Below, piece after piece: positions 29,943 through 51,823 of a DNA stretch of 64,000 nt. The notes below the pieces were generated by a model. It saw only the letters and a list, made by a program, of their open reading frames with translations. It was not told where the DNA came from and ran no database searches. The position numbers and the translations under genes were made by a program. The DNA comes from Bacteroidota bacterium (GTDB lineage Bacteria > Bacteroidota > Bacteroidia > Bacteroidales > Tenuifilaceae): positions 4,909 to 68,908 of the forward strand of contig JBFMGQ010000013.1 in the NCBI GenBank assembly GCA_040752515.1, written 5' to 3'. Within the stretch, counting starts at the first letter, position 1, and the number at the start of each line of letters is the position of its first letter.

Positions 29943-34437
<4,495 letters not shown>

Positions 34438-34599: not shown

Positions 34600-35706
34600 T
34601 TAGGTGTTTTTTTTAGTTGAACTCCTAAAAGCCTTTTTATATTCGGAGGGTGTCATACCGGTTTCCTTTTTAAAAAGGGTATTGAACGATGTTTTGGAGT
34701 TAAACCCCGAGTCGTAGGCAATGCCTAACAGAGTTTCGTTGTCGAAGTTAGGATTTGTAAGCCTTTGCTTGGCCTCCTCAATCCTGAAACCGTTGATATA
34801 GTTGAAAAAGTTTACGCCAAGTTCCTTGTTAAGGTAACTGGAAATTTCCTGGGAGCTTACTTTAAGCTGGTCGGCCAAATCCTGAATGGTTAACTCATTA
34901 TTCAGGTATGGCTTGTTCTTAACCATATGTTCATAAAGTAAATCGCCTAATTTTTGCAATGTTTTGGTCTGTAGGTCTTCATTCGCCTCTATATGTTTAG
35001 GTTTTTTGTACTGGTAGAGCACCGGCTGATGAATTCCGTAGTAGCTTATGGAAAAGGTGAAAACCAGTAAACCCAAGTGGAAAAGTTCAATGGGGTTAAA
35101 CGGGAAAATATTTTGGGTTGAAAAGATTATAAATGTAATACCTGAAGCAAAAAAGCCGGATAGAATCCAAATGGCAATATTTTTTACCCAATTTAGCATG
35201 ATAGTTTCTGAGCGATACGAGAAATGGTCGCCTAGTGTACGGTTGTGCTTTCGGATTAAAACGAGCGATGCTCGCCAGTAGTAAAGAATAACTATCAGGA
35301 AAAGAGCATAGTTGAAAATTGCCAGCCAAGTGATTGGCCCTTTGCTGTAAAAGTTAACGGAGTCAATATCAATTGGTTTGCCCCAAATAGCTGCAATAAG
35401 TATGAAAAGGTAAACCGGAATGAGATGCCTATGAATATTTCGGAGGGTTGTAGGCTTTTTTGATGTTAAAAGTTTGGTATAGAAGAAAAGAAAAGGCCCA
35501 TAGCTTAGTGGGATAATAATTAAATCGGGCAGCCATGTTAGGTATTTTGCATTAAGGAGGGAATACAACATCTCGATACCAATCACAATCAGCCAAACAA
35601 CCAGTAACCGGTCGGCTGATCCCTTGTTGGGTTTTCGGTAAACCAGTAAGGCCGCAAACCAGGCCTGAATAAGGCCTATATGGTATATGGGTATTACGTT
35701 GGTCAT
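34600..35706 (-). CDS. Membrane-anchored AraC-family regulator
   Basis: About 7 N-terminal TM segments; C-terminal KPYLNNELT...AYDSGFNSKTSFNTLFKKETGMTP. Confidence 0.9.
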   Translation of the reverse strand: MTNVIPIYHIGLIQAWFAALLVYRKPNKGSADRLLVVWLIVIGIEMLYSLLNAKYLTWLPDLIIIPLSYGPFLFFYTKLLTSKKPTTLRNIHRHLIPVYLFILIAAIWGKPIDIDSVNFYSKGPITWLAIFNYALFLIVILYYWRASLVLIRKHNRTLGDHFSYRSETIMLNWVKNIAIWILSGFFASGITFIIFSTQNIFPFNPIELFHLGLLVFTFSISYYGIHQPVLYQYKKPKHIEANEDLQTKTLQKLGDLLYEHMVKNKPYLNNELTIQDLADQLKVSSQEISSYLNKELGVNFFNYINGFRIEEAKQRLTNPNFDNETLLGIAYDSGFNSKTSFNTLFKKETGMTPSEYKKAFRSSTKKNT

Positions 35707-35814: not shown

Positions 35815-37239
35815 TCATTTTATTCGGTTTTCGCGGATAACCTCGTGAACAATATCAGGTAAGTTACTTTCGATGGTTTTTAAAACTTCCAGTACCCTTT
35901 TATGCCGGAAACGGTTTTGTCCTATTTCGTTGATGTGCTGAATAAATGCCTGTTTCAATCCTTCGCTATTTATGGAACCTTCCATATATTCCGATGCCCT
36001 ATGGTATAACTGAATTATAGGCAGGTACTGAGGCGTTTCCTTCATTTGCTTTTCTTTGGGTATTAACTTGTACCTGCGTACAATGGAAATAATTTTTGAA
36101 TACTTTTCTGCATGAAATAACGCATCGATGTATGCGGTGAAGAATAGATGCCACCGAAACTCAAAAATTTCTTTTTTGTATGCATTTAGAAATCCATCGG
36201 CATAATCTATTGCTTTTGCACATTGCCCATTTGCCACTAGAGTTTTAATGTAAAAGCTAACAAAACCAATTCTATAGTAAAGATTTCCAGATTTTTTAAG
36301 TTCTGGAAACGACGCTACCATGATCTCCAAGGCTTTTTCGTTTTTGCCTTGTCGCAGTAAAACATCGCAAAGGTTAATTAAGTAGAAAAGGTAATCGCTA
36401 TTGCGGTATCGAATTGAAAGGAAACCATACTTTTCGGCTTCGTCGAGTTCGTTAAGTTTTGAGTGCATCATCGCTCGATTGGCGTAGTAATTTGCTAGTA
36501 TTCGCTTGGAGTAGAAGACATCTTTTTTGAACTGTTGATCGAGATGCTGGTAAACCAGCCGCAACTTGTCGAATTCCCTGTTTGTGTAATAAAGAATGGT
36601 TAACCTTACTAAAGCCCGGTATCGGGTGTATCCGTCTATAGAGTCATTGTAGTAAATATCGGAGAAGAGTTTCTCCCAGGTTTCAAATTCCTCGGCAACC
36701 CATATCTTTTTAAAGATAACTTTTTCGGCTGCTTCGTTCATTTTATTGTTCAGTTGTTGGGAATTAAAGTAGTTTATTTTATAGCGTTCTAAGTAGTTCG
36801 ATACAATGGCGTAATTTCGGGGTCGATTCCGGACAATTAAGTAATCGCGGTAATGTTGCAAAACCCTAAAGAATTTCATGAAGTAGTAACTGGTGGGTAA
36901 CACCTCATCCATTTTCCTAAGTAACTCTAACTCTTGGTCTGACTGAATGGAGTCGTTCATGATGCTTTTTTCAATCTCGCTCAGCCATGCATAAAAGATA
37001 TCAACATCAATTTTTTGAAGATTCTCTTGTATCCAGGCTTTCATGTAGGAGTATGTCCGCTTGTCGATTGATTTATCGAACGGTAAGCGATTTTCTGGGT
37101 TTTTTGAATTATAGGAGATTAAATTGAGAATTTTTAAGTTCTCTTCTTTCTGAAATTGCTGTATCGAGATTAAGTAGTCCAATTCATGCGGGTAAAGTTC
37201 CGCACAAAAGGTCTCGAAAGCGGCAAGTTTACTTTTCAT
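35815..37239 (-). CDS. Hypothetical cytoplasmic alpha-helical (TPR-like) protein
   Basis: 474-aa ORF, no signal peptide, helical repeats (YYANRAMMHSKLNELDEAEKY). Confidence 0.55.
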   Translation of the reverse strand: MKSKLAAFETFCAELYPHELDYLISIQQFQKEENLKILNLISYNSKNPENRLPFDKSIDKRTYSYMKAWIQENLQKIDVDIFYAWLSEIEKSIMNDSIQSDQELELLRKMDEVLPTSYYFMKFFRVLQHYRDYLIVRNRPRNYAIVSNYLERYKINYFNSQQLNNKMNEAAEKVIFKKIWVAEEFETWEKLFSDIYYNDSIDGYTRYRALVRLTILYYTNREFDKLRLVYQHLDQQFKKDVFYSKRILANYYANRAMMHSKLNELDEAEKYGFLSIRYRNSDYLFYLINLCDVLLRQGKNEKALEIMVASFPELKKSGNLYYRIGFVSFYIKTLVANGQCAKAIDYADGFLNAYKKEIFEFRWHLFFTAYIDALFHAEKYSKIISIVRRYKLIPKEKQMKETPQYLPIIQLYHRASEYMEGSINSEGLKQAFIQHINEIGQNRFRHKRVLEVLKTIESNLPDIVHEVIRENRIK

Positions 37240-37270: not shown

Positions 37271-37298
37271 AAAAAAGAACCGGCTTGTGGCCGGCTCT
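37271..37298 (-). terminator. Terminator ending the thiolase-to-hydrolase locus
   Basis: aaaaaa-agaaccggc...gccggctct. Confidence 0.6.
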
Positions 37299-37302
37299 AA
37301 TT

Positions 37303-37698
37303 TTAAATCTGCTTTAACCATTCAGTAGCTTCGCGCTCGTCGTTAAAGAATTTTGATATAAACTTTTTGGGGTCGCGTTTGGCCATTATATTTTTAACTG
37401 CAAAGGTAATAAAGGGATCGTTTGGCAGTAGAACTGCAGAACAGCGATACCCTATTGCCTGAGCTTGCAGTAACCACTCTTCGTTTAACCATTTTTGGTC
37501 TTCCACGGCAAAAACTTTTGCTTCAGTATTATCGGTCAGTATCTTGGTAATGGAGTGTTTACGCATAAGCTCCAACGCAGTATTGCACCCTTCCCTGAAT
37601 TCGTTGCTTGGAGGAAGTCCAATCCACTTAATCTTTAGGCAAGGAACGTCCTCAATAACGGTTATTTTGCAGTGATTTCCTACCTCAATGGTTTCCAT
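37303..37698 (-). CDS. SpoIIAA-like / STAS-SEC14-type small protein
   Basis: KILTDN, DQKWLNEEW, FNDEREATEWL pattern. Confidence 0.7.
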   Translation of the reverse strand: METIEVGNHCKITVIEDVPCLKIKWIGLPPSNEFREGCNTALELMRKHSITKILTDNTEAKVFAVEDQKWLNEEWLLQAQAIGYRCSAVLLPNDPFITFAVKNIMAKRDPKKFISKFFNDEREATEWLKQI

Positions 37699-37704
37699 AT
37701 CAGA

Positions 37705-38658
37705 TTACTGTTTTAGAAATTCTATTACAGCATTGTTGAAAATCTCTGGTTTTTCGAACATCATAAAGTGCCCGCATTTGGGTACCATAACTAACTTACT
37801 GTTAGCAATCTTTGAAGCGCCGTAAGTAGCAATATCTCTGGTTTTCCCGGGGTTAAGATACCGGTTAGGAATTAAGTTGTCGTTTTCGCCAAAGAATATA
37901 AGGGTTGGCATCTTGATATCGTTCAGGTAATCAATTACGGGCTCATCAACCATGCCTTTAACCGATTGGGCTACAGCGTAGCAATAACCATCAAAATCGG
38001 CCGCCTTCCGCATGCGGAGCCTATCGGTAATCATGAATTCGGCTTCTTTGGGAACCTTGTAAAAGTTAGTAGCCAGGTTGTTTTGAATTGCTTCGGCAGT
38101 GGTAAGTTTAACACCTTTAGGCGTCATAACATCCCTAAACCATTGCTTTTGCCCAGCTGTAAACCTCTCGAATCCGGCTGGAGCAACCAAAATAAGGCCG
38201 TTTACAATTTCAGGGTAAAGTAGGGCGGTAGTGATTGATATTTGCCCACCCATTGAATGCCCTGCAAGGTAAACATTTTGTAGGTTGAGCTCCTTGATCA
38301 GTTCAGCAACAACACCTGCGTAGTACGACATTAATCCGCTATGGGGCTCTTTGCTTGATTTACCATATCCGGGGAGGTCGATAGCAATGCAACGAAAATG
38401 CTGGCTTAACTCATTGATGTTCCTGCTCCACGCTGGGGAGTAACTTCCTAAACCATGAATAAAAACAATGGTTTTATGTCCGCTTCCCATGTCGGCATAA
38501 GCTATTGTATGCCCATCGTGCGGAAGGAAAACCTTTTTAACCTGGAAAGGATATTCAAGGTCGTTCATTGTTTTTAAATCGCTTAAACCCTTATAGGGAG
38601 AGCTGCAGCTCGAAGCTACCATAACAATCAGGAGTGCTATTTTAAAATATCGAACCAT
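37705..38658 (-). CDS. Lipoprotein alpha/beta-hydrolase (esterase)
   Basis: Lipobox VASSC; HGLG oxyanion motif, GHSMGG nucleophile, GENDNL (Asp), CGHF (His). Confidence 0.9.
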   Translation of the reverse strand: MVRYFKIALLIVMVASSCSSPYKGLSDLKTMNDLEYPFQVKKVFLPHDGHTIAYADMGSGHKTIVFIHGLGSYSPAWSRNINELSQHFRCIAIDLPGYGKSSKEPHSGLMSYYAGVVAELIKELNLQNVYLAGHSMGGQISITTALLYPEIVNGLILVAPAGFERFTAGQKQWFRDVMTPKGVKLTTAEAIQNNLATNFYKVPKEAEFMITDRLRMRKAADFDGYCYAVAQSVKGMVDEPVIDYLNDIKMPTLIFFGENDNLIPNRYLNPGKTRDIATYGASKIANSKLVMVPKCGHFMMFEKPEIFNNAVIEFLKQ

Positions 38659-38668
38659 TGCTATTCAT

Positions 38669-40264
38669 TTAAAACATTAACCATTTAAAAACCACGAATG
38701 CAGTCCATGGATTTGTAGGACGCTTATCGAGTTCTCCGTTTACAGGGCTACCGTGTGAATTTTCCTTGCTGTCGTAAAAATCGCCCAACATCAGGTAGGC
38801 TGCGTGAAGTTCAAGGCTCATGAACGGGCCAAAGCTGTACATAATAGCACCATTTAGTTCGGTACCCATAAAGAATCCTCCGTCTTTGGGTTGAACATTC
38901 GATAGGGCAAACGCACTTCCTACCTTAGCGTTTAAGCGGTTAGGAATAATTCCTTTTGAGAATGTGAGTGTGCCAGCAGTTAAGCCGCATCCCATGTTTG
39001 AGATATCGCAAATGGCAGGAGTAAAGCGGTTGACTACATTGCCGTGGGGCATTAGAATGTACGACCCACTACTGATGAAGATTGCACCCGGCGAGGCCCA
39101 TTGATTCCCGGTAATAACCCCCGAGTACCTTCCGTCCTTAAGGCCGTCGGCATCACCCGATGAGTAAAGCATATCGAGTGTAACCGCGTCGGAGAGGGTT
39201 TGCCCATAGCGATACGATACCCTAAGATTGGCTGCAAAACCGTAAAAATCATTTGCTTTAGTCCATTGGCTTTGCGAAATAGTTTTATTCAAAAGAGTAT
39301 CTGCTTTACCAAGGTTGACGTTCACAAATCCGGTAATCATCCATGGGTCGAGCCAATGCTCATTGTTACGACCAAAAAATGTGCCCAACCAGTATATATC
39401 AGCTTTATAGGGAACATCGCCGTAACGGAAGAAATATGTGCCGTTATAGGAAGAGAGAAGCGAATTTAATCCCTGTCCCAGAATTGAAACGCCTCCTTTG
39501 CCTGCTGCCCTATCGCGAAGCCAGTATGCCGATAACCCCCATTTCCACGCACGGCTGATATCCTTTTCGCCGGTAAGCTCAAACAACGAAACATCGTCGT
39601 CCTGCTCGGTGGCATTTTCGTAAAGCTGATAGTATCCTGCTTTTATTCTTGAAAAGTCCCAATCCTTCCTTACGGAAATTCCAACACCATCGGTTCCCCA
39701 GTAGGCAAGCCGATATCCGGTAGTAGTCATTTTATCGAATACCGTTCTGTATGGGTTGTATGGAGTGTCGAAAAGGCGCTGTAACCCAAGGTTAATAAAC
39801 CAACCCTTCGACGGATTAAGTTCAATTTCGATGTTCTGGGTTTGAAGGTTAACCTGGTCGGCCGAAATGCCCGAACCAAGATTACCACCAACACCATAGG
39901 CAGCATCGCCCCACGTCCAGTCTATTTCAAATGAGGCGCGTAGCAATGCTTTACCGTTAAATAGTTTAGGCTGATAGATAAAAAAGGGTATCAACCTTTG
40001 CTCAAAATATTTGGAGGTTAGCGAATCGCTGGTGGTGGTTGTGTTGTTGCCGAATAGGCGGCCTACCACTTGCCCTTTTAGGAATTCGCTCTTTGCATAC
40101 ATATTCGATGCCACACCCTGGTTGATAAAGAAAGCAAAAAATTGCAGTTCCTTATCGGCCTTTTCAGGTATTTCTTTTGAGAAATACTGATTTGTGGGTA
40201 CTTGCCCTTGAATGCTCCATGCCATCAGCATGAAGAGCACAAAACCAACAACTCTTTTTTTCAT
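38669..40264 (-). CDS. Outer-membrane beta-barrel protein of unknown family
   Basis: Signal peptide, many amphipathic strands, terminal VVFKWLMF; ATG 40264. Confidence 0.7.
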   Translation of the reverse strand: MKKRVVGFVLFMLMAWSIQGQVPTNQYFSKEIPEKADKELQFFAFFINQGVASNMYAKSEFLKGQVVGRLFGNNTTTTSDSLTSKYFEQRLIPFFIYQPKLFNGKALLRASFEIDWTWGDAAYGVGGNLGSGISADQVNLQTQNIEIELNPSKGWFINLGLQRLFDTPYNPYRTVFDKMTTTGYRLAYWGTDGVGISVRKDWDFSRIKAGYYQLYENATEQDDDVSLFELTGEKDISRAWKWGLSAYWLRDRAAGKGGVSILGQGLNSLLSSYNGTYFFRYGDVPYKADIYWLGTFFGRNNEHWLDPWMITGFVNVNLGKADTLLNKTISQSQWTKANDFYGFAANLRVSYRYGQTLSDAVTLDMLYSSGDADGLKDGRYSGVITGNQWASPGAIFISSGSYILMPHGNVVNRFTPAICDISNMGCGLTAGTLTFSKGIIPNRLNAKVGSAFALSNVQPKDGGFFMGTELNGAIMYSFGPFMSLELHAAYLMLGDFYDSKENSHGSPVNGELDKRPTNPWTAFVVFKWLMF

Positions 40265-40296
40265 CGACACCTGGCAGTTCAGTGGGTTAAAGAAAT

Positions 40297-40329
40297 AAAA
40301 AAGGGACTTGCAGGTATAGCAAGCCCCTT
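40297..40329 (-). terminator. Internal terminator/attenuator-like hairpin after the lipoprotein gene
   Basis: aaggg(a)cttgc...gcaag(c)ccctt with an A-run on the plus strand. Confidence 0.55.
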
Positions 40330-40340
40330 AGGTAATAGTT

Positions 40341-40853
40341 TTAGCGAACAATTTTTATGTACTTCTGAATGTTAGTGGTTCCATATGCTCCACCGCTGGT
40401 GCTTCCAAAACCAGCTTGTGCGGTGGGAGGTGTTACCCCTGGAATTTGAGGCTCAACTTGAGCTACTTCATAGTTCATGGTGTAAGGATTCTTGGTAGCA
40501 TCAATCTCAAAAATCCCTTGGCTGGTAAGGGCAGTGGGTGAACCTTGATTTAAGGTGATGTTCCAAATGTTTCCTACGCCCGATTTGGTTTGAACATACG
40601 TTCCGGTAAGGGTGGTTTTTGCACCATCCTTGAACGATTCAACCAGGTAGGTGTTGTCCTTGTTGAACTTTGCATAAATGGAATCAATCCCTAAGTATGC
40701 GAGCAATGGCGCAACATTTGTTCCCGATGAATACCATTCCCCAACAATACCAACCTTTTGTGGATCGTTCGAGTCATCATCTTCGCTTTTTTCACATGCC
40801 ACAAAGGCTACTGAAAGCATCATGGCTAAAACAAGTAACTTTTTCATTTTCAT
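40341..40853 (-). CDS. Lipocalin-like surface lipoprotein
   Basis: Lipobox AFVAC followed by acidic EKSEDDD; IVGEW motif; beta-strand pattern. Confidence 0.6.
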   Translation of the reverse strand: MKMKKLLVLAMMLSVAFVACEKSEDDDSNDPQKVGIVGEWYSSGTNVAPLLAYLGIDSIYAKFNKDNTYLVESFKDGAKTTLTGTYVQTKSGVGNIWNITLNQGSPTALTSQGIFEIDATKNPYTMNYEVAQVEPQIPGVTPPTAQAGFGSTSGGAYGTTNIQKYIKIVR

Positions 40854-40926
40854 AAGATTTAGTGTTTGACTTTAAGTTCGATTCGGTTTATTTATGTAAG
40901 CAAGTAACAAAAACTCAAACTATGGG

Positions 40927-41005
40927 GTCAACATTGCATTAAAATAAGCAGGGTTGACATTACCTTTAAATATCTTAAATAAGAAATTAAAGTATCAGAA
41001 AAACA
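40927..41005 (-). promoter_or_regulatory. Candidate regulatory region A (shares blocks with 48072-48140)
   Basis: gcatta-N11-gttgacat and aagtatcagaaaaaca; dyad gtcaac-N20-gttgac. Confidence 0.55.
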
Positions 41006-41039
41006 GATAGATAACATTTAAAAGAGTTTGTTTGACCAA

Positions 41040-42056
41040 TTAGCCCCAACGGATTACATTGGCACCCCAGGCATAACCAATTCCTGCTGCTATCATTGAA
41101 ATTATTGTCCCTTTCATGATTTTCCCTGATTTTAGGGCAAGGTGAAGCGATAGGATTTGATCGATTTGCCCCATATGTCCATACTCTTCAAGGTATATGG
41201 TTTGATTCATGGTTAAGCCCAGTTCTTGCACCATGTACTCATACATCGACCTTTTAAAATGGAGGCAAGCCAGATACCCAAGTTTATCCTTATCTACCCC
41301 TGACTTTTTAAAGGCCATATTGATGCAATGCATCCAGTTGCTCATCGATACCTCATTAAGCCGCTCTTTCATATGTTTTTCGTCGAAAACCTTTAGCGAC
41401 TTGTAGGCAAAATGTGCGTTTTCGGCAGTAATGGGTTTACATGTACCACCGTATTCAACGCCCACGTCGCGAGCGAGCGATCCGTCGGTCATGATATGAG
41501 TGCCCAGCAAAACGTTACTGCCCAGGTTGCGTTTCATGATAAGTGCTCCTGCACCAGCCGATAGGTTGTACATGAACGATACTGCGGGATCCTTAAAATC
41601 AATGAAATCGCCATTGCGATAGCCCCCAACAATCATTACCGTTTTAATATCCTCGTCGGCAAGCATCATGTCCTTGGCAATTTTCATTGCTGCAACGGTT
41701 GTTCCACAACGTTGCTGCACATCGATGGCCCAGGCATTTTTTGCTCCTATTTGTTCCTGAATGTAAATGCCCGATGTGGTTAAGGGATACTCCTTCCATT
41801 CTTCGCCAATGCAAAGAATAAGATCAATCGATTCGGGATCGATCCCGGTATTTGCCAGGGCATCCTTAGCAGCTTTAACGCCCATTTCCTGCGTTCCATC
41901 ATTGGGGGCGGGAACAACTATCGATTTTATTCCTAACTTCTCAATCACTGCTTGCTCGCTCCATACCCCGCCAGTTGCTTCCGCAATCTGTCGTGCAGTC
42001 ATTCTTCCCTCAGGGATATATATTCCTGTTCCAACTATTCCAACATGAGTGTTCAT
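41040..42056 (-). CDS. FabH-fold (KAS III-like) enzyme with Cys and a GHxGxxD motif
   Basis: IDVQQRCG, LACLHFKR, YGHMGQID, AAGIGYAWGA; ATG 42056. Confidence 0.8.
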   Translation of the reverse strand: MNTHVGIVGTGIYIPEGRMTARQIAEATGGVWSEQAVIEKLGIKSIVVPAPNDGTQEMGVKAAKDALANTGIDPESIDLILCIGEEWKEYPLTTSGIYIQEQIGAKNAWAIDVQQRCGTTVAAMKIAKDMMLADEDIKTVMIVGGYRNGDFIDFKDPAVSFMYNLSAGAGALIMKRNLGSNVLLGTHIMTDGSLARDVGVEYGGTCKPITAENAHFAYKSLKVFDEKHMKERLNEVSMSNWMHCINMAFKKSGVDKDKLGYLACLHFKRSMYEYMVQELGLTMNQTIYLEEYGHMGQIDQILSLHLALKSGKIMKGTIISMIAAGIGYAWGANVIRWG

Positions 42057-42076
42057 TTTCAATAGCAATTTCAGGT

Positions 42077-43084
42077 TTAGTAAATAAACAAGTTACTTCC
42101 CACCGCCAAGCCTGCGCCCGAAGCTATAAACACAACCCTATCGCCTCTTTTCACTTTGCCTTCGGCAATAGCGTGGTGAAATGCCATGGGCACACAACCC
42201 GATCCGGTATAGCCGTAACGATCCATAACACAGGTGGTTTTGTCCATAGGTTGTCCTAGTTCTTCCATCACCTTTACAATAACTGACCGGTTAATCTGGG
42301 TGAATATGTAGTGGTCAATCTGGTTTGCAGTTAGGTTATTGTCGGTAAGTAATTTACTGGCAACCATTGGCCAAAGCCTGACATTCCTGTCTCCCGGAAG
42401 AGGCTTGAGGTTTTGCAGTCCGTACTCCTTGGCATCTATTTTATCATGGGTAATTGGATTTCGGCTCCCACCTGAGTATATACCTATGAAATCCCATTGA
42501 GTGCCATCGGCCAGATGTTGCCCTGCAATATAGCCTGATTGGCCGGAGATATCTTTTTCCAGAATGAATGCACCAGCTCCATCGGCAAAGATCGAATAAC
42601 CAAATGCATCATCGGGTCGGACAAATGCAGGCATATTGTATACACCAACTACTAGGGCATACTTAATATTGGGTGAATTGTTTAACACTTTCACAGCTGT
42701 GTCAAGTGCTATGGTAAAGCTGGCACACGAGGCATTCACATCAAAAGCGGTTGACCAGCTCTCTTTCCCTTGAACCCTTCCTTGAACAACAATTGCCGTG
42801 GCAGGTGATATGTACTCGGGTGTGTCGGTTGCCACAATTACTAGCCCAATTTCATCGACGCTAATTTTTGCCTCGGCAATTGCGTTTTGCGCAGCCTTTG
42901 TGGCAAAATCGGCAGTAGTTTCATTTAATCCTCTTAGGTGGGCTATATGCCGCTTGTATATTCCAATTTTCTGCTCGGTTTTCTCGGCATCAAATTCGAT
43001 ATTGACAAGTTCTTTCAATTCCTGATTGTCGATAGCCTTGCCGGGAGCATAAACGCCTGTTGATTTTATTCGAACTGGGATCAT
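42077..43084 (-). CDS. FabH-fold (KAS III-like) enzyme lacking the canonical His and Asn
   Basis: FDVNASCASF, FADGAGA, IFTQINR (for HQAN), YGYTGSG (for GNTSAA), GAGL. Confidence 0.82.
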   Translation of the reverse strand: MIPVRIKSTGVYAPGKAIDNQELKELVNIEFDAEKTEQKIGIYKRHIAHLRGLNETTADFATKAAQNAIAEAKISVDEIGLVIVATDTPEYISPATAIVVQGRVQGKESWSTAFDVNASCASFTIALDTAVKVLNNSPNIKYALVVGVYNMPAFVRPDDAFGYSIFADGAGAFILEKDISGQSGYIAGQHLADGTQWDFIGIYSGGSRNPITHDKIDAKEYGLQNLKPLPGDRNVRLWPMVASKLLTDNNLTANQIDHYIFTQINRSVIVKVMEELGQPMDKTTCVMDRYGYTGSGCVPMAFHHAIAEGKVKRGDRVVFIASGAGLAVGSNLFIY

Positions 43085-43097
43085 GGCTGTAATCTGA

Positions 43098-44408
43098 TTA
43101 AATGTAACCCATTTGTTTGGCTTTTTCGGTTAGCTCATCGCGAAACTTGGGATGGGCAATTGAGATAAGCGCTTTGGTTCGTTCTTTAACCGTTAATCCG
43201 GTTAACCTTGCATACCCCCATTCGGTAACAATGTAATCGGTATGGCTACGGTGAAGTGTTACTGCTGTACCCTCAGGCAACACTGGCACAATGGTTGATA
43301 CTTCACCATTTCGTGCGGTAGAACGGCAAGCAATAATTGATTTTCCCAGCCCATCTAACCCCTCAATTGCACCTTCGGCGGTATCGGTTTGACCACCTGT
43401 TCCCGAGTACTGGTTTATGCCTATCGACTCGCTGGCAACCTGCCCAGTAAAATCGACCATGATGCAGGTGTTAATGGATACCATTTTAGAGTTTTGCCTA
43501 ATAACACACGGATCGTTAACATATCGTCCCCTCAGGAACTCAACCGATGGGTTGTTGTCGAGCCAACGGTATAGCTTTTCGGAACCCATGGCAAATGTGC
43601 AAATGAATTTACCATTATGCAGGGCTTTCTTTTTATTGGTAATAACCCCTAACTCGTAAAGTTCCATCATGGAGTCAACCATCATCTCGGTATGCACACC
43701 AAGATCTTTTTTGTTGCGAAGCGATAAGGCAGCAGCGTTAGGTATCTCACCTATGCCTAGTTGAATGGTTGAGCCATCATCAACCAGTTGGGCTATGTGT
43801 TCACCAATACGCATGGCTTCCTCGTCGGGTTGGGGCGAAGGAAGAGTTGGCGGTACTTGCGAATACTCTACAAAGTAATCAACATCCTTGATGTGAACGT
43901 GGGTATCGCCAAAGGTTCTGGGCAGGTGATCGTTAACCTCAAGAACAACTACCTCGGCGGCTTCAAGTATGTCTTTTTCGTAAGTAACTCCAAGTGACAG
44001 CGAGACAAAGCCTTTCTCATCGGGTGGGGTACAGGTACCAACAAACATGTGAGGCCTGCGCACTTTGAGTCTGTCGGTTGCTGCCCGATGTAACATATTG
44101 GGTACATAGGTTACAGTACCCGTTTTTTCCTTGATTGCCTGACGTGATCCGGGTGCATGAAACCAGCTGCATAACTCAAAGTGTCCTTTCATCTCCGGTT
44201 TCATGTAAAAGTCGTAGGGTTTCATGGTAAGTACCGAGAAAACCTTTACATCTTTCACTCTATCTTTGGCTAAGTGGAACTTGCTCATGCAGCCCTGGGG
44301 TTCCGATGCGCATTGAGCGACAATAATATCGCTATCGCTTTTTATTAAATCAGCTACCTGTTCCAGGCTGATTAACTTACTTTTATACAAATCGGTAAAT
44401 TTACCCAT
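43098..44408 (-). CDS. Acetyl-CoA hydrolase/4-hydroxybutyrate CoA-transferase family
   Basis: GFVSLS, IQLGIG, LGVHTEM (catalytic Glu), SGTGGQTD, YIVTEWG. Confidence 0.9.
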   Translation of the reverse strand: MGKFTDLYKSKLISLEQVADLIKSDSDIIVAQCASEPQGCMSKFHLAKDRVKDVKVFSVLTMKPYDFYMKPEMKGHFELCSWFHAPGSRQAIKEKTGTVTYVPNMLHRAATDRLKVRRPHMFVGTCTPPDEKGFVSLSLGVTYEKDILEAAEVVVLEVNDHLPRTFGDTHVHIKDVDYFVEYSQVPPTLPSPQPDEEAMRIGEHIAQLVDDGSTIQLGIGEIPNAAALSLRNKKDLGVHTEMMVDSMMELYELGVITNKKKALHNGKFICTFAMGSEKLYRWLDNNPSVEFLRGRYVNDPCVIRQNSKMVSINTCIMVDFTGQVASESIGINQYSGTGGQTDTAEGAIEGLDGLGKSIIACRSTARNGEVSTIVPVLPEGTAVTLHRSHTDYIVTEWGYARLTGLTVKERTKALISIAHPKFRDELTEKAKQMGYI

Positions 44409-44422
44409 ACTACCTTCAAATT

Positions 44423-45976
44423 TTATTGTTTTTTCTTTATCAATCGCGAAACCAATAGAGCTCCATAACCAAATATTACGGAGGCAATTATTGCAGTTGA
44501 TGCTGCAATTGCAGGATTCCGAATAGTTCCCTCTAAGTATTTATCAAAAAATCCGAAACTTAGTGAGTATTTGGTGTGTAGGTGGGGTAAAAGGTAATAA
44601 ATGCTAAAATGCGTCACTGCAGCTACTATAGATGCTAGGAAGGGTATCCACGATTTTATATCTTTTAAAAAGATACCCATAAGAATAGGTACAAAAATTA
44701 TGGAAAAGTATGCGTAAACTCCATTTTGAGCGAGGATAGCAACGCTTAGCTTAGGATGCAGAAGCTGGTCGCGAGCAACCAAAAACGATACCAGCGCGAG
44801 AGCTACTATAATTATTCGGTTAATCCTAAGGTATTGCTTATCGCTTAGGGCTCTTTTCTCGCCCCATAAGGGCTTAACGATATCGTTATTTATACTACTG
44901 CTTAACGATTGTATTAGCCCTTCGAGGGTTGACATTCCCGCTGAAATTAGCCCTAGTATTACCAACAAGCCAACCAGTGTGGCAACTATTCCATTGGAAA
45001 AAACTTTCACAACATATGAGGGAATGATGCTATCGTTGGTAAGGTGTACACCATTAGCGGTAAGGTCGGGAAATTCCATACGAGCCCATAATCCGGCGAT
45101 AACTACGCTAAAAAACAGTATTTCAACAATTATAGATGTGGCCAAGAATTTATTTACATCACTCTCCTTTTTAAGAAGCAGCGATTTGGTTATTATATGC
45201 GGTTGGCAGACAACGGCAACGCCTATAACAATTTGAGCAAATATAATTTCATAAAAGTCTCGAAATAGTGGACTATTGGGATTTGTAGGTTTTGTGAGAG
45301 CAGGATCTATTGCTGCCAGCTTTTTGAGGAATGCACCAAAACCATCGCTTAAATGATGTAAACCGGAAAATATTAGTATGGCTGCAACCACAATCATTAT
45401 AACAGCCTGGATAGTATTTGTGTAAACCATTGAGTTTGCGCCACCAAACATCATGTATCCAAACACAAATAAAACAATAACGGCAAGCGTTATAACCTCA
45501 TTGGAGTTAAGCGCACTGGCAAAAACCTTAGCAAGCGCAACAAGTATCAGCACTATAAACGTGATAAGCAAAACCGATAGTATGGCAATAAAAAAAGCAT
45601 ACGGCTTGCTGTTATATCTTTTTCCCATCCAGCTGGCAAGCGAAACAGCACTGACCGATTGGCCAAAACGGCGGAAACTTTTAGTTAGAATAGCCAACGA
45701 CACTAAAGTGGCCAGAGGGAAGAAAACCCCAAATGATAGCACACCGCTAATCCCGTAGTTAGCTATTAAACCGGGATTAATTACAAATGTTGCAGCACTG
45801 GTCATTGCTGCAGCAAGGGAAAGCCCTACCGAGTAAGGTGAAAATGTAACGCTACCAAGAGCATAATCGCTCATAGTTTTAACTCGTAATGCTCCCTTAA
45901 TAACAAAGTATAGCACTATACCCGCATATAGCGCTATTAGAATCCAAGTTCCAAATATTTGCTCACTAGTTGCCAT
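44423..45976 (-). CDS. Sodium:solute symporter (SSS family)
   Basis: About 13 TM segments, MTSAATFVINPG, FGGANSMVYTNTIQ, SAGMSTLEG. Confidence 0.88.
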   Translation of the reverse strand: MATSEQIFGTWILIALYAGIVLYFVIKGALRVKTMSDYALGSVTFSPYSVGLSLAAAMTSAATFVINPGLIANYGISGVLSFGVFFPLATLVSLAILTKSFRRFGQSVSAVSLASWMGKRYNSKPYAFFIAILSVLLITFIVLILVALAKVFASALNSNEVITLAVIVLFVFGYMMFGGANSMVYTNTIQAVIMIVVAAILIFSGLHHLSDGFGAFLKKLAAIDPALTKPTNPNSPLFRDFYEIIFAQIVIGVAVVCQPHIITKSLLLKKESDVNKFLATSIIVEILFFSVVIAGLWARMEFPDLTANGVHLTNDSIIPSYVVKVFSNGIVATLVGLLVILGLISAGMSTLEGLIQSLSSSINNDIVKPLWGEKRALSDKQYLRINRIIIVALALVSFLVARDQLLHPKLSVAILAQNGVYAYFSIIFVPILMGIFLKDIKSWIPFLASIVAAVTHFSIYYLLPHLHTKYSLSFGFFDKYLEGTIRNPAIAASTAIIASVIFGYGALLVSRLIKKKQ

Positions 45977-46060
45977 AGGTTTGGTTTGTTAGGTTTGTAA
46001 AGCCATAGACGCAAGTTAGGCAAATAATGCCATTCCTGCGTCTATGAGCAAAAATTTGAG

Positions 46061-46804
46061 TTAGATAGTTATACCACCGTCAACACTTAAGACTGTGCCA
46101 TTAATGTAAGCGGCTTCGTCGCTTGCCAGGAATAGGTAAGCCGATGCAATCTCTTCGGGGAGCCCTAGGCGACCAACCGGAACTTTCTGCTCCATGGCTT
46201 TAAGTATATCCTCGGGCATTTTTTTTACCATTTCGGTTGCTATGAAACCGGGTGCAACGGCATTAACGGTTACCCCTTTACGACCAAGCTCTTTGCCCCA
46301 AGTCTTTGTCATGCCAATTAATCCAGCTTTTGTAGCCACATAGTTGGTTTGGCCAAAATTACCATAAAGGGCAACAACCGACGAGGTGTTGATAATTCGG
46401 CCATAACCCTTGTCAACCATGAAGCCGCTAACGCATTTGGTACAGTTGAAAACCCCTGTAAGATTAACATCAATTACTTCCTGCCATTGCTGAGGAGTCA
46501 TTTTCTTTAGCGTTGAATCGCGAGTAATGCCAGCATTGTTTATTAGTATATCAATCCGCCCGTACTTGCTGATGGCATCGTTAGTTGCAGCTTCAACCTC
46601 TTCGAATTTGGCAGTGTTTACTTTTACAAATTCGGCATTGCCTCCTTTCTTTTTGATTTCGTCAACGGTGGCTTTACCTTTTTCCTCGTTCATATCCCAA
46701 ATAATCACGGTAGCGCCTTCCTGGGCAAAGCGGATCGATGCCGCTTTACCAATTCCATCGGCACCCCCGGTAATGATTGCAATTTTATTCTCAATTCGTT
46801 TCAT
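46061..46804 (-). CDS. PhaB/FabG-like 3-oxoacyl-CoA reductase (SDR)
   Basis: TGGADGIG, NNAGITRD, GNFGQTNYVATKAG, VNAVAPGFI. Confidence 0.88.
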   Translation of the reverse strand: MKRIENKIAIITGGADGIGKAASIRFAQEGATVIIWDMNEEKGKATVDEIKKKGGNAEFVKVNTAKFEEVEAATNDAISKYGRIDILINNAGITRDSTLKKMTPQQWQEVIDVNLTGVFNCTKCVSGFMVDKGYGRIINTSSVVALYGNFGQTNYVATKAGLIGMTKTWGKELGRKGVTVNAVAPGFIATEMVKKMPEDILKAMEQKVPVGRLGLPEEIASAYLFLASDEAAYINGTVLSVDGGITI

Positions 46805-46822
46805 TGTAGTAATTGGTTTAGG

Positions 46823-48019
46823 TTAAATATTTTCAATAATTAATGCAGTTCCTTGGCCGCCCCCAATGCAAAGTGTAGCTAAACCGGTAGCGGCATTACG
46901 GCGTTTCATTTCGTAAATCAGCGTAGTAAGGATTCGGGCTCCCGAGGCTCCAATGGGGTGGCCTAAGGCTATGGCCCCTCCATTAACGTTAACTATTTCG
47001 GGGTTCAGATTTAGATCACGTAGTACAGCAATTGATTGTGCAGCAAAAGCTTCGTTAGCCTCAATAAGTTCAATATCGCTTATTTGCATTTTGGCTTTTT
47101 GTAAGGCAATACGAGTAGCTGGTACTGGGCCATAGCCCATAATCTTGGGATCGAGAGCTGCGTTTCCATACGAAACTATTTTAACCAATGGTTTTAAGCC
47201 TAATTCGTTAGCCTTATCTCGCGACATTACAATTAACATGGCAGCCCCGTCGTTGATACCCGATGCATTACCTGCTGTAACCGTACCATCTTTTTTAAAG
47301 GCAGGCTTAAGTTTTTGCAGTTGCTCAAGGGTAACGCCTTGCCTAATAAACTCATCGGTTTTAAACAGGATTGGATCACCTTTTTTTTGGGGTATTTCAA
47401 CCGGAACAATTTCGGGCTCAAACTTGCCTGCTTTTTGAGCTGCTTCGGCTTTTTGCTGGCTATTTAGTGCAAATTCATCCTGCTCTTCGCGGCTAATTTT
47501 CCATTGTTCAGCAATATTTTCAGCTGTAATGCCCATATGATATTGATTAAACACATCGGTTAGTCCATCGTATATCATGCTGTCAATAATTTGGCCGTGC
47601 CCCATACGGTAACCGTTCCGAGCTTTGTCGAGTAGATAGGGTGCATTGGTCATGCTTTCGGTTCCTCCAGCAAGAATTACATCGGCATCGCCAAGCATAA
47701 TGAATTGGGCAGCCATAGAAACAGCTCTCAGCCCCGATCCACATAATTTGTTGATAGTCATTGCCGGTGAGGTGTCGGGCACACCAGCTTTAATTGCAAC
47801 TTGGCGTCCAACATTTTGTCCAAGTCCTGCCGATAGTATGTTTCCTACTATCGCTTCGTTTATTTCGGTAGGATTGATTCCAGCACGGGTTATCGCCTCT
47901 CGTGCTGCTATTGCACCAAGTTCAACGGCGCTTAATCCCGATAGGCTGCCATTAAAATTCCCTATGGCTGTTCGGGCGGCTGATACTATTACTACTTCTT
48001 TCATTTTATTGGGTTTCAT
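46823..48019 (-). CDS. atoB: Acetyl-CoA C-acetyltransferase (thiolase II, AtoB/PhaA family)
   Basis: [31 protein letters not shown]; alternative start 48004. Confidence 0.93.
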
Positions 48020-48071
48020 TAGTTAGTTTCTTTTCACGAAGAAACAATAACTATTCCCCAAAGACCAGCCA

Positions 48072-48171
48072 GCATTATTTTAGTATATGTTGACATATGA
48101 ATAATAACGACCTTATATATAATTAAGTATCAGATAAACAATATGATAGTAATATTTTAAATTACGTTGAC
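48072..48171 (-). promoter_or_regulatory. Candidate regulatory region B upstream of the thiolase
   Basis: gcatta-N11-gttgacat, aagtatcagataaaca, second gttgac at 48166. Confidence 0.55.
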
Positions 48172-48194: not shown

Positions 48195-48220
48195 AAAAAC
48201 CGCTCGCTTAAGCGGTTTTT
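48195..48220 (-). terminator. Terminator of tRNA-Gln
   Basis: aaaaaccgct...agcggttttt. Confidence 0.8.
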
Positions 48221-50476: not shown

Positions 50477-50878
50477 TTAGTAGGTAACAAAATTAAAAGG
50501 GACTTGGGCCAATTCCGATAAATCTTCACCGGCTTCGCGGAGTTCGGAATCCTCCTTGTCGTAGTACCAGTTAATAGTTAAAGGTATTCCTGCGTTTTGG
50601 ATTTGGTTAAGGCTAATGATGATATCGTATAGGAATTTCGCTGACGACGAGTTAAAGTAAACCAGTTTGAATTGAAATTCTATAGGCTGAATATTTTCAC
50701 CTTTGCTGTTTTTTTCTAAAAGTTCCTTACTATAGCTATCAAGCCAATCTAGAATAGGGATATAAAAATCTCTTACATTTTCGGGGCGTGAGTAACCCGA
50801 AATGGTCAATATATTCACACTGGGGTTAAAGTCAATTTGTGGAGTTGCGTTGCTTGATTTTAAAACTAATGGGTTCAT
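50477..50878 (-). CDS. siaC: SiaC/DUF1987 regulatory phosphoprotein
   Basis: NATPQIDF, GYSRPENV, LVYFNSSSAK, INWYYD. Confidence 0.85.
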   Translation of the reverse strand: MNPLVLKSSNATPQIDFNPSVNILTISGYSRPENVRDFYIPILDWLDSYSKELLEKNSKGENIQPIEFQFKLVYFNSSSAKFLYDIIISLNQIQNAGIPLTINWYYDKEDSELREAGEDLSELAQVPFNFVTY

Positions 50879-50888
50879 TCTGATCAAT

Positions 50889-51299
50889 TTACGTATTAGG
50901 CGTTATTGGAATAAAGTTGAACGGGAAATTAATCATCTCCGATATCTCTTCACCTGATTCAAATATCTCATCATCGTCTTCGTCGTAGTACCAGTTAATT
51001 TCAACGGCGTTACCTTTGGAGTGGAACTTCATGAAAACCATAAGGATATCCATAAGGAACTTTGAAGAAGCTGAGTTGAAGTAGGTGAGCTTCAGGTTCA
51101 GTACAAGGTTACTCTTGTTAAAGTTTGTGTTCTTGGCAAGTACATTTTCCTCGTAATCTTCAAGCCATTTAATAAGTGGTTTATAGAAACCAACAGTGTT
51201 TTCGGGCCTTGAAAAACCTGAGATTTCGAAAACCGAATTATCGGGATCGAAAAAAACTCGGGGTGTAAATTCGCTGGGCTCTATGTATAATGGTTCCAT
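50889..51299 (-). CDS. siaC: SiaC/DUF1987 regulatory phosphoprotein
   Basis: EFTPRVFFD, GFSRPEN, LTYFNSASSK, INWYYDEDD. Confidence 0.85.
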   Translation of the reverse strand: MEPLYIEPSEFTPRVFFDPDNSVFEISGFSRPENTVGFYKPLIKWLEDYEENVLAKNTNFNKSNLVLNLKLTYFNSASSKFLMDILMVFMKFHSKGNAVEINWYYDEDDDEIFESGEEISEMINFPFNFIPITPNT

Positions 51300-51304
51300 G
51301 GTCA

Positions 51305-51823
51305 CTAACTGTTTTGGTTTTGAAGCGACACCTTAATTCTCAGAGTAAAGTATGTGTACTGTTCGTCAATATCTTCAAAAGAGAATTCTAACTTATTTTC
51401 GGTAACCTTAGCAATATTTATGATACCGAGACCAGCACCACCTTTCTGTGTCACATTTCCACTAAGTATAACCTCCTTGTAAAACTCTTTAAGACCAGCT
51501 TTATCGAGTTGATTGACTTTCTCCAAACGTGCTTTTAAAGTGCCCATTTTAACTTTCAGCAAAGAGTTAGAGCAACTCAAATCGACCTTGTCGTTTTCCA
51601 GTATTAGTGAAAATTTGGGCTGAAAATTATTGCTGCCCTTGATAACATCTTGATGCTTGTATATGTTCTCAAGGCTCTCGACCATGGCAGAATATACTTT
51701 CTTACGTATGATGATCCCAAAGTTGTACCGCTCAAGCAACGATGTCATCTTATTGAGCAAAAAACCTATCTCCTCGTAGGAGAGTGGACCGTAATGGTTG
51801 ATTAAAACTTCGCCTTTTTCCAC
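51305..51823 (-). CDS. siaB: SiaB family protein kinase
   Basis: VESLENIYKH, GGAGLGIINIA; directly upstream of two siaC genes. Confidence 0.85.
   Translation of the reverse strand: MEKGEVLINHYGPLSYEEIGFLLNKMTSLLERYNFGIIIRKKVYSAMVESLENIYKHQDVIKGSNNFQPKFSLILENDKVDLSCSNSLLKVKMGTLKARLEKVNQLDKAGLKEFYKEVILSGNVTQKGGAGLGIINIAKVTENKLEFSFEDIDEQYTYFTLRIKVSLQNQNS

Follow-up and report, generated by a model that had tools for sequence, protein, structure and literature searches.

Gene content and organisation of the locus

A cluster of ten genes was examined at positions 37303-48019 of a 64,000-nucleotide stretch of DNA (hereafter the window; positions 4,909 to 68,908 of contig JBFMGQ010000013.1, assembly GCA_040752515.1) from a Bacteroidota bacterium of the family Tenuifilaceae. 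A first-pass annotation, made from the sequence alone, had described this region as a candidate uptake and fermentation locus for extracellular 3-hydroxyacyl esters, of the kind released from polyhydroxyalkanoates (PHA) such as polyhydroxybutyrate (PHB). On checking of the open reading frames (ORFs), all ten genes were found on the minus strand at the coordinates and in the order that it gave, with identities that agree. Their spacing is mostly tight, as described, with intergenic gaps of 6-84 bp and a single exception of 186 bp ahead of the lipoprotein gene.

In the direction of transcription, the first gene encodes a thiolase II of the acetyl-CoA C-acetyltransferase type (46823-48019; Thiolase_N/C domains, Thiolase_N at 1.6e-110; TIGR01930, 496 bits against a cut-off of 240). 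This is followed by genes for a FabG/PhaB-like short-chain dehydrogenase/reductase (SDR; 46061-46804), an importer of the sodium:solute symporter (SSS) family (44423-45976; PF00474, 2e-35), a CoA-transferase of the 4-hydroxybutyrate-CoA-transferase family (43098-44408) and two FabH-fold proteins, designated KAS1 (42077-43084) and KAS2 (41040-42068), the latter belonging to the PRK06840 family. The remaining genes encode a small lipoprotein of 170 aa (40341-40853), an outer-membrane barrel of 533 aa that begins with a signal peptide and ends in Phe (38669-40270), an alpha/beta-hydrolase with a lipoprotein signal (37705-38658) and a cytoplasmic STAS/SpoIIAA-like protein of 131 aa, identified by a sequence search against the PDB (37303-37698). 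An eleventh conserved gene, also on the minus strand (35815-37239), encodes a TPR-like cytoplasmic protein of 474 aa and forms the end of the cluster in relatives. Neither Pfam nor NCBIfam matched the lipoprotein, the barrel or the STAS-like and 474-aa proteins. No gene for PhaC, acyl carrier protein (ACP), SusC or SusD was found within the stretch, in line with the earlier description.

A terminator-like hairpin on the minus strand (37276-37298; nine pairs, six of them G-C, followed by a T-run) lies 3' of the STAS-like gene and closes the envelope-module operon, while a tRNA-Gln gene with its terminator (48195-48220) is located upstream of the thiolase gene. As hairpin terminators flank the block, the boundaries originally set for it agree with the transcription signals. 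A further strong hairpin with a T-run (40301-40329, minus strand; 11 pairs, six of them G-C) was identified between the lipoprotein and barrel genes, and it is possible that this acts as a partial terminator setting the ratio of lipoprotein to barrel expression. Situated inside the envelope operon, it may attenuate read-through and lead to an excess of lipoprotein.

Conservation and distribution of the gene cluster

The whole block, including the gene for the TPR-like protein, was found to be syntenic in ten of 40 related Bacteroidales genomes, a few of these loci being interrupted by contig ends, or lacking the STAS-like gene, or lacking the thiolase and SDR. Counting that of the window, 11 of the 41 related genomes have an orthologue of KAS2, a patchy distribution that appears typical of an accessory catabolic trait. 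Genes for an Omp85 protein (33118-34437) and an AraC protein (34600-35706) were dropped as members of the cluster, being conserved within the genus only. Two genomes of another class (L024 and L025) carry the same gene set in a shuffled order, namely MarR, SDR, KAS1, SSS, AMP-forming acyl-CoA ligase, KAS2, lipoprotein, barrel, esterase and thiolase, with the acyl-CoA ligase occupying the place of the CoA-transferase. The second-best NCBIfam model of this ligase, PRK06839 (NF005307), has a number adjacent to that of the KAS2 model PRK06840 (NF005308), and the ligase and KAS2 genes may thus already be neighbours in the reference genome of these models.

A KAS1 alignment, used to scan species genomes of GTDB, gave 80 loci at 56-82% identity, distributed among Bacteroidales, Chlorobiota, many Spirochaetota, Clostridia, Gammaproteobacteria and one metagenome-assembled genome (MAG) of the Bacteriovoracaceae. 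Across 160 fetched loci, a cytoplasmic core consisting of the CoA-transferase, KAS1, KAS2, SDR, thiolase, alpha/beta-hydrolase and an importer recurs in several phyla (Spirochaetota, Clostridia, Chlorobiota, Bacteriovoracaceae and others). When all ORFs of 83 KAS1 loci were clustered, KAS1 was found to be accompanied by a CoA-transferase in 66 loci, KAS2 in 63, the hydrolase in 57 and the SDR in 50, with a PhaA-type thiolase in 45 and an SCPx-type thiolase in eight. An SSS importer was present in 40 of these loci and a Liv-type ATP-binding cassette (ABC) system in about 25, while the lipoprotein and the barrel were each present in 38, the TPR-like protein in 26 and a long TetR in 16. This neighbourhood is far beyond chance. 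With synteny in ten relatives and a core shared by several phyla, the genes are conserved together, as had been presumed in treating them as one locus.

The operon family is widespread, occurring in hundreds of mostly uncultured anaerobes, and the Bacteroidota form adds to it the surface lipoprotein, the AlgE/OprD-like barrel and the periplasmic lipoprotein esterase that are described below. The locus was found in metagenomes of anaerobic digesters, sludge, wastewater and groundwater, habitats that are rich in PHA. RNA library X20 likewise contains contigs that match most of the locus at 91-92% identity; these derive from a relative and have no bearing on induction. No description of such a system emerged from a search of the literature on the operon, on PRK06840 and on anaerobic pathways for 3-hydroxybutyrate (3HB) or PHB, in keeping with the first-pass annotation, which knew of none in Bacteroidales.

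Cytoplasmic enzymes, importer and direction of the pathway

The thiolase of the cluster is the sole true thiolase in the window genome, which is 99.7% complete, and is PhaA/BktB-like. The SDR passes the FabG model TIGR01830 (301 bits against 298) and falls just below the cut-off of the acetoacetyl-CoA reductase model TIGR01829 (276 against 302). By family score, the locus has both an acetoacetyl-CoA thiolase and a FabG/PhaB-like 3-hydroxyacyl-CoA oxidoreductase of putative (R)-type. Under the coenzyme rule for classical SDRs, an Asp at the end of strand beta-2 denotes the use of NAD(H), and as this residue (Asp37) is invariant in 46 of 46 orthologues, the SDR is predicted to be NAD-type, which fits oxidation. 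It is proposed to be an (R)-3-hydroxyacyl-CoA dehydrogenase. The CoA-transferase possesses the N- and C-terminal AcetylCoA_hydro domains of Pfam (203 and 38 bits), with 4-hydroxybutyrate (4HB) CoA-transferases as its closest solved relatives (3eh7, 4e-104); it scores 255 bits on TIGR03948 against a cut-off of 675 and is 71% identical to the copy at locus L027. A CoA-transferase, an (R)-3-ketoacyl reductase homologue and a PhaA/BktB-like thiolase together convert a C4/C5 3-hydroxy acid to acetyl-CoA.

Searches of the window genome for PhaC_N, Esterase_PHB, 3HBOH, ECH_1 and a second thiolase found none of these, nor were PF10605, PF10503 or a PHB depolymerase found. As PhaC_N, ECH_1 and a second thiolase were not found, the thiolase and SDR appear to serve no pathway of PHB synthesis, beta-oxidation or butyrate formation. 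A role in butyrate or 4HB fermentation was likewise rejected, there being no crotonase and the cluster thiolase being the only one of the genome. A phloroglucinol-type degradation was also considered and rejected, given that the hydrolase is periplasmic in Bacteroidota and cannot follow a cytoplasmic reductase, and that the known phloroglucinol genes belong to other families.

Exchanges of parts between clusters point to the direction in which the pathway would run. The SSS importer is swapped for a Liv-type, binding-protein-dependent ABC importer in L027 and in loci of Spirochaetota and Clostridia, and binding-protein-dependent ABC systems work in the import direction only. As the two replace each other, the conserved role is taken to be import, and as CoA-transferase and acyl-CoA ligase interchange, the conserved activity would be the activation of a free acid. 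All Bacteroidota copies of the hydrolase bear a lipoprotein signal, whereas those of other phyla are cytoplasmic and signal-free, which argues for action on an incoming substrate; hydrolysis would precede inner-membrane transport in Bacteroidota and follow it elsewhere. None of the clusters has an exporter or an ACP. Comparative genomics therefore favours uptake and CoA-level oxidation, as proposed at the outset, over the biosynthesis and export that had been named as the alternative.

In that alternative, thiolase and SDR would form 3-hydroxybutyryl-CoA, from which KAS1 and KAS2 would build an acyl-ester, pyrone or beta-lactone-like metabolite by the logic of LstAB, OleA or PqsBC, with export through the barrel and lipoprotein. 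Degenerate FabH-like enzymes in adjacent pairs, accompanied by a ligase, reductase and alpha/beta-hydrolase, are reminiscent of the Ole, Lst and Pqs systems, and it is this resemblance that recommends the idea, together with full-length matches of KAS1 to CorB and MxnB and the fact that AlgE is an exporter. OleA structures match KAS1 over residues 44-147 only. Unlike OleABCD and LstABCD, the window has a CoA-transferase, which cannot stand in for an OleC-type synthetase, and no AMP enzyme. Every version of the cluster carries an importer, either SSS or binding-protein-dependent ABC, and none an inner-membrane exporter. With no ACP, an SDR of NAD type, a hydrolase that is periplasmic in Bacteroidota and cytoplasmic elsewhere, and PHA depolymerases adjoining three clusters, a biosynthetic function is considered highly improbable. 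An Ole/Lst-type role in particular was rejected on account of the importers and the interchange of CoA-transferase and ligase.

Predicted envelope module

The lipobox Cys of the small lipoprotein is followed by an acidic run (CEKSEDDDSND in the window copy), and a similar run is present in 22 of 22 homologues. Such a run resembles the surface-export signal of Bacteroidota lipoproteins, and the protein is probably surface-exposed. It was initially called lipocalin-like; its lipoprotein nature is borne out, while the lipocalin fold is weakly supported, by an atlas feature score of 0.91 and by a match to DUF5004 at an E-value of 0.02 in three of the 22 homologues. A profile search with the family found no solved relative. 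Capture of a ligand is proposed as its function.

A model of the barrel, predicted from a 37-sequence alignment (pLDDT 73, pTM 0.74), has about 18 strands. Its best Foldseek match was AlgE (3rbh; E-value 1e-17, TM 0.54/0.66), followed by MOMP and the OprD/Occ channels (OccD/OccK), among which OccD2/OpdO was matched at 1e-11. These matches to AlgE and OprD/Occ channels have TM values of 0.54-0.70 at a sequence identity of 9-15%, and FadL was a poor structural match. The Pfam family Alginate_exp was recovered solely with the barrel homologue of L024, below cut-off (22.1 against 25.2). Neither plug nor TonB-receptor domains were found in the window barrel. On the basis of this model, the barrel is proposed to be a channel for a carboxylate-bearing solute.

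The hydrolase has a lipobox and retains the catalytic Ser (GHSMGG), Asp and His, and no acidic run follows its lipobox Cys. It is probably periplasmic in the window organism and is proposed to be an esterase of oligomers. With 43 bits on TIGR02240 against a cut-off of 251, it falls in no curated family of PHA depolymerases or oligomer hydrolases.

KAS1 and KAS2

When aligned to the FabH of the window genome itself and to 2ebd, KAS1 and KAS2 were both found to deviate from the Cys-His-Asn triad of FabH, keeping the nucleophilic Cys and having lost the His-Asn pair. KAS1 possesses Cys120, Thr262 in place of His and Tyr292 in place of Asn (TQIN instead of HQAN, and GYTGSxC instead of GNTSAAS), in addition to an invariant Cys297. 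KAS2 possesses Cys121, His270, His298 and Asp303, within the motifs LHF and GHxGQxD. These signature residues are invariant in 66 homologues of KAS1 and 60 of KAS2, and the altered residues that led to the two being described as atypical FabH-fold enzymes are thus real. Both fall below the cut-off of 292 of the curated FabH model TIGR00747 (KAS1 179 bits, KAS2 106 bits), and KAS2 passes NF005308/PRK06840 (461 bits against 315), a family without a studied function. Their closest solved structures are nevertheless true FabH enzymes (2ebd, 1hn9 and 4ryb). Despite this closeness, judging by their residues, KAS1 and KAS2 cannot perform FabH chemistry. Two large branches of the FabH/thiolase superfamily that are annotated as '3-oxoacyl-ACP synthase III' are in this way exposed as mis-annotated. 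Homologues of KAS2 are 338 aa in length, and the true start of the window copy is probably the ATG at 42056.

KAS1 is found without KAS2 in L075, L078, L080, L098 and L134 with its clade, while a KAS2-like gene without KAS1 is found in L031/L032. An obligate PqsBC-like pair is unlikely, as each protein occurs alone in some lineages. KAS1 mostly adjoins the CoA-transferase, and adjoins a hydrolase in Gammaproteobacteria and in the L134 clade. Its Cys297 recalls the acid/base Cys of thiolases, and KAS1 and KAS2 are most likely acyl-transfer or non-FabH Claisen-type enzymes that would act on CoA esters of the pathway. In L031/L032, from a groundwater bacterium, the KAS2-like gene (39% identity) is accompanied by genes for an AMP-ligase, an enoyl-CoA hydratase and a Liv-type ABC importer; these loci appear to tie the PRK06840 family to importers beyond this type of operon.

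A CoA-transferase, a KAS III-like enzyme and FabG are reported to act together in the BioZ route of pimelate synthesis (PMC7645780), and this precedent raises the question of whether an exogenous short acid might be scavenged for anabolism, for example as a primer of a lipid or cofactor in the way that BioZ uses glutaryl-CoA. The Cys-His-His set of KAS2 could still decarboxylate. KAS1, however, is without every residue for decarboxylation, no ACP or downstream gene of fatty acid synthesis occurs in any cluster, the thiolase and the links to depolymerases indicate breakdown, and the distribution among relatives is patchy. We give this possibility very little weight.

Association with PHA depolymerases and proposed pathway

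Extracellular (type-1) short-chain-length PHA (scl-PHA) depolymerases, as defined by the NCBIfam model NF050058 (cut-off 150 bits), were found beside the cluster or its relatives at three loci. At L069 (Bacteriovoracaceae), a secreted 346-aa protein of 195.8 bits is encoded together with a TetR and a porin, in a set divergent from the genes for hydrolase, KAS2, SDR, CoA-transferase, thiolase, KAS1 and SSS, in a genome with just two matches to the depolymerase family. The depolymerase of L134 (294.7 bits) lies within a co-directional cluster and that of L158 (260.4 bits) adjoins a KAS1-like gene; the KAS1-like proteins of these two loci are approximately 38% identical to KAS1 of the window and have the same signature of Cys, TQ(V/I)N and GYTGSAC. 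The presence of an esterase in the locus suggests esters of C4/C5 3-hydroxy acids as the substrate, and the three loci, representing independent lineages in which a KAS1-family gene stands beside an scl-PHA depolymerase, lend direct genomic support to this.

The cluster at L134 (196-14499 of a metagenome contig) consists of twelve co-directional genes, with the order TetR, hydrolase, depolymerase, acyl-CoA ligase, SDR, outer-membrane barrel, hydrolase, KAS1-like, second ligase, MaoC hydratase and MFS, and its barrel of 1131 aa is of the CarboxypepD_reg/OMP_b-brl_4 type. The whole has the appearance of a complete locus for PHA utilisation, built to a different design.

In two gammaproteobacterial MAGs (L078 and L080; G342 and G343), a stand-alone pair of KAS1 and hydrolase genes lies approximately 4 kb from a gene of the depolymerase family, and the isolate names agree with the PHB and PHBH sample codes of a deep-sea plastic study (PMC10817984). 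About 20 genes of the PHB-depolymerase family are present in each of these MAGs, several of them multi-domain and encoding more than 800 aa, and the proximity in these two plastisphere MAGs was discounted for that number.

The evidence above makes it probable, in our estimation, that the locus is a Bacteroidota-adapted form of a widespread catabolic operon for soluble, short-chain breakdown products of PHA, with 3HB (and 3-hydroxyvalerate) monomers and small oligomers as substrates. In the proposed pathway, an oligomer would be captured by the surface lipoprotein, would pass the outer membrane through the AlgE/OprD-like barrel and would be trimmed by the periplasmic lipoprotein esterase. The resulting acid would be imported via the SSS symporter and activated with acetyl-CoA by the 4HB-type CoA-transferase, after which the NAD-type SDR would oxidise (R)-3-hydroxybutyryl-CoA to acetoacetyl-CoA and the thiolase would yield two acetyl-CoA, with ATP synthesis through acetate. 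A depolymerase above cut-off was found in none of the 41 related Bacteroidales genomes, and the expected co-occurrence with PHB depolymerases thus holds at L069, L134 and L158 and fails among the relatives. As the relatives have no depolymerase, the window organism would be a cross-feeder on soluble products released by others, and it probably scavenges soluble 3HB oligomers or monomers.

Several observations weigh against this interpretation, among them the lack of depolymerases in the relatives. Direct adjacency to a depolymerase occurs in only three of about 160 loci, and the proximity in the plastisphere MAGs is weak evidence in genomes with so many genes of that family. The hydrolase lies below every PHA-depolymerase cut-off (NF050089, 102 against 300 bits). 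Its scores on families of the PcaD enol-lactonase, BioH and HsaD types are similar to those on PHA depolymerases. The nearest characterised relatives of the CoA-transferase use 4HB and not 3HB. Furthermore, the simple three-enzyme path gives no job to two strictly conserved enzymes of the thiolase superfamily, and an idle KAS pair may mean that the true substrate is chemically different.

The same architecture could accordingly serve another small ester or lactone, such as lactones of 4- or 5-hydroxy acids, compounds of the enol-lactone or 3-oxoadipate type, and beta-diketone or polyketide-derived acids, with KAS1 and KAS2 carrying out chemistry that 3HB does not need. The hydrolase scores, the affinity of the CoA-transferase to 4HB enzymes and the two otherwise unexplained KAS proteins would all be accommodated by such a substrate. 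Bona fide scl-PHA depolymerases in three independent clusters are at odds with it, however, as is the lack, in the window genome, of a partner enzyme of the AbfD or crotonase type for a 4HB route, and the (R)-type FabG/PhaB-like SDR and PhaA/BktB-like thiolase suit 3-hydroxy acids of C4/C5. Another ester is thus regarded as unlikely, although as a more serious contender than biosynthesis or anabolic scavenging.

Under the PHA-fragment interpretation, a role for KAS1, perhaps with KAS2, may be suggested by analogy, namely that of an 'ester thiolase' that would transfer the 3-hydroxybutyryl group from an ester bond of the oligomer (or oligomer-CoA) to its Cys and then to CoA. Thiolysis of PHB to 3HB-CoA by PhaZ1, as cited in PMC3430594, is a precedent. 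We consider this role speculative and rather doubtful. If true, each ester bond would be converted to a thioester instead of being hydrolysed, approximately doubling the ATP yield per monomer relative to hydrolysis followed by CoA transfer, and the enzyme would parallel, for polyesters, the glycan phosphorylases found in anaerobes.

Comparison with known systems

As in classical PHB utilisation (PhaZ, 3HB-oligomer hydrolase, BdhA, acetoacetate activation and PhaA), the proposed pathway would begin with hydrolysis of an ester and then convert a C4 3-hydroxy acid via acetoacetyl-CoA to two acetyl-CoA. It differs in that 3HB would be activated first, by CoA-transferase or ligase, and oxidised as the CoA ester with no BdhA, in that the window genome is without a depolymerase or PhaC, and in the addition of two KAS III-like enzymes. 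The PhaA/BktB-like thiolase and FabG/PhaB-like reductase resemble the PhaA and PhaB steps in reverse, and orthologous clusters adjoin NF050058 depolymerases. Like the ato operon of E. coli (AtoDA, AtoE and AtoB), the locus unites an importer of short-chain (oxo)acids, a CoA-transferase dependent on acetyl-CoA and a thiolase, while its CoA-transferase and transporter are from other families and the SDR, esterase, KAS-like enzymes and envelope module are additional.

KAS1 and KAS2 have the same fold and acyl-accepting Cys as FabH/KAS III, CerJ, ChlB3, DpsC and PqsBC, and as in CerJ and PqsBC their decarboxylation dyad is altered. Unlike FabH, CerJ and PqsBC, KAS1 has the Thr/Tyr combination with a second invariant Cys, KAS2 has His-His-Asp, and both are found in importer-linked catabolic operons without ACP.

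The first-pass annotation had also likened the locus to a polysaccharide utilisation locus (PUL). Bacteroidota PULs similarly combine, in one co-regulated locus, a surface-exposed lipoprotein that binds the substrate with a route across the outer membrane, a hydrolase in the periplasm, an importer in the inner membrane and catabolism in the cytoplasm, and in this surface-to-cytoplasm logic the likeness stands. It does not extend to the components, as no SusC/SusD-like genes were found between 33118 and 50090; unlike PULs, the locus has no TonB-dependent SusC, SusD or glycoside hydrolase, and instead has a plug-less barrel of approximately 18 strands and a putative non-glycan substrate. The barrel is predicted to be monomeric and 18-stranded like AlgE and the Pseudomonas OprD/Occ channels, of which the Occ channels take up small carboxylates, and differs from these in having no Pfam match and a dedicated surface lipoprotein as partner. 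Bacteroidota would accordingly be able to build a PUL-like locus on a non-TonB channel of AlgE/OprD type for a non-glycan substrate.

PHA rank among the most abundant storage polymers of microorganisms and among the leading biodegradable plastics and, to our knowledge, very little is known of their consumption by strict anaerobes in digesters, sediments and guts. The operon would provide a concrete gene set for anaerobic PHA consumption, and a marker for cross-feeding on PHA fragments in metagenomes.

Regulatory features and neighbouring genes

An operator-like inverted repeat, GTCAACC-N19-TGTTGAC, was identified upstream of the lipoprotein gene (40927-40958) and recurs at approximately -100 to -75 in other genera, and the same holds for a GTCAAC site near position -80 relative to the thiolase gene. 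Also ahead of the thiolase gene, TCTGATACTT is followed approximately 38 bp on by ATGTCAAC (48089-48134, minus strand), and the same pair with equal spacing is present at 40953-40999, which suggests a regulatory site common to both transcription units. An operator-like motif is common to two promoters, and the cytoplasmic half of the locus is therefore probably co-regulated with the envelope half. A conserved leader (CTGGTCTTTGG ... TGTTTCTTCGTG) was also observed 5' of the thiolase start in several genera (48030-48075 in the window; L011-L018), and could be a promoter or an element of the 5' untranslated region.

The STAS-like gene is present in part of the Bacteroidota clusters only, while the TPR-like gene is the last of the cluster in 26 loci of Bacteroidota and is missing from loci with a MarR or TetR regulator. 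Being restricted to clusters without MarR or TetR, the TPR-like and STAS-like proteins are candidate regulators, and the STAS-like protein is possibly regulatory. Two tandem genes of the SiaC family (PF09345) were additionally found after a DUF6272 gene just upstream of that for GlnRS (50477-51823); these SiaC/DUF6272 genes may form a partner-switching module, apparently unrelated to the locus.

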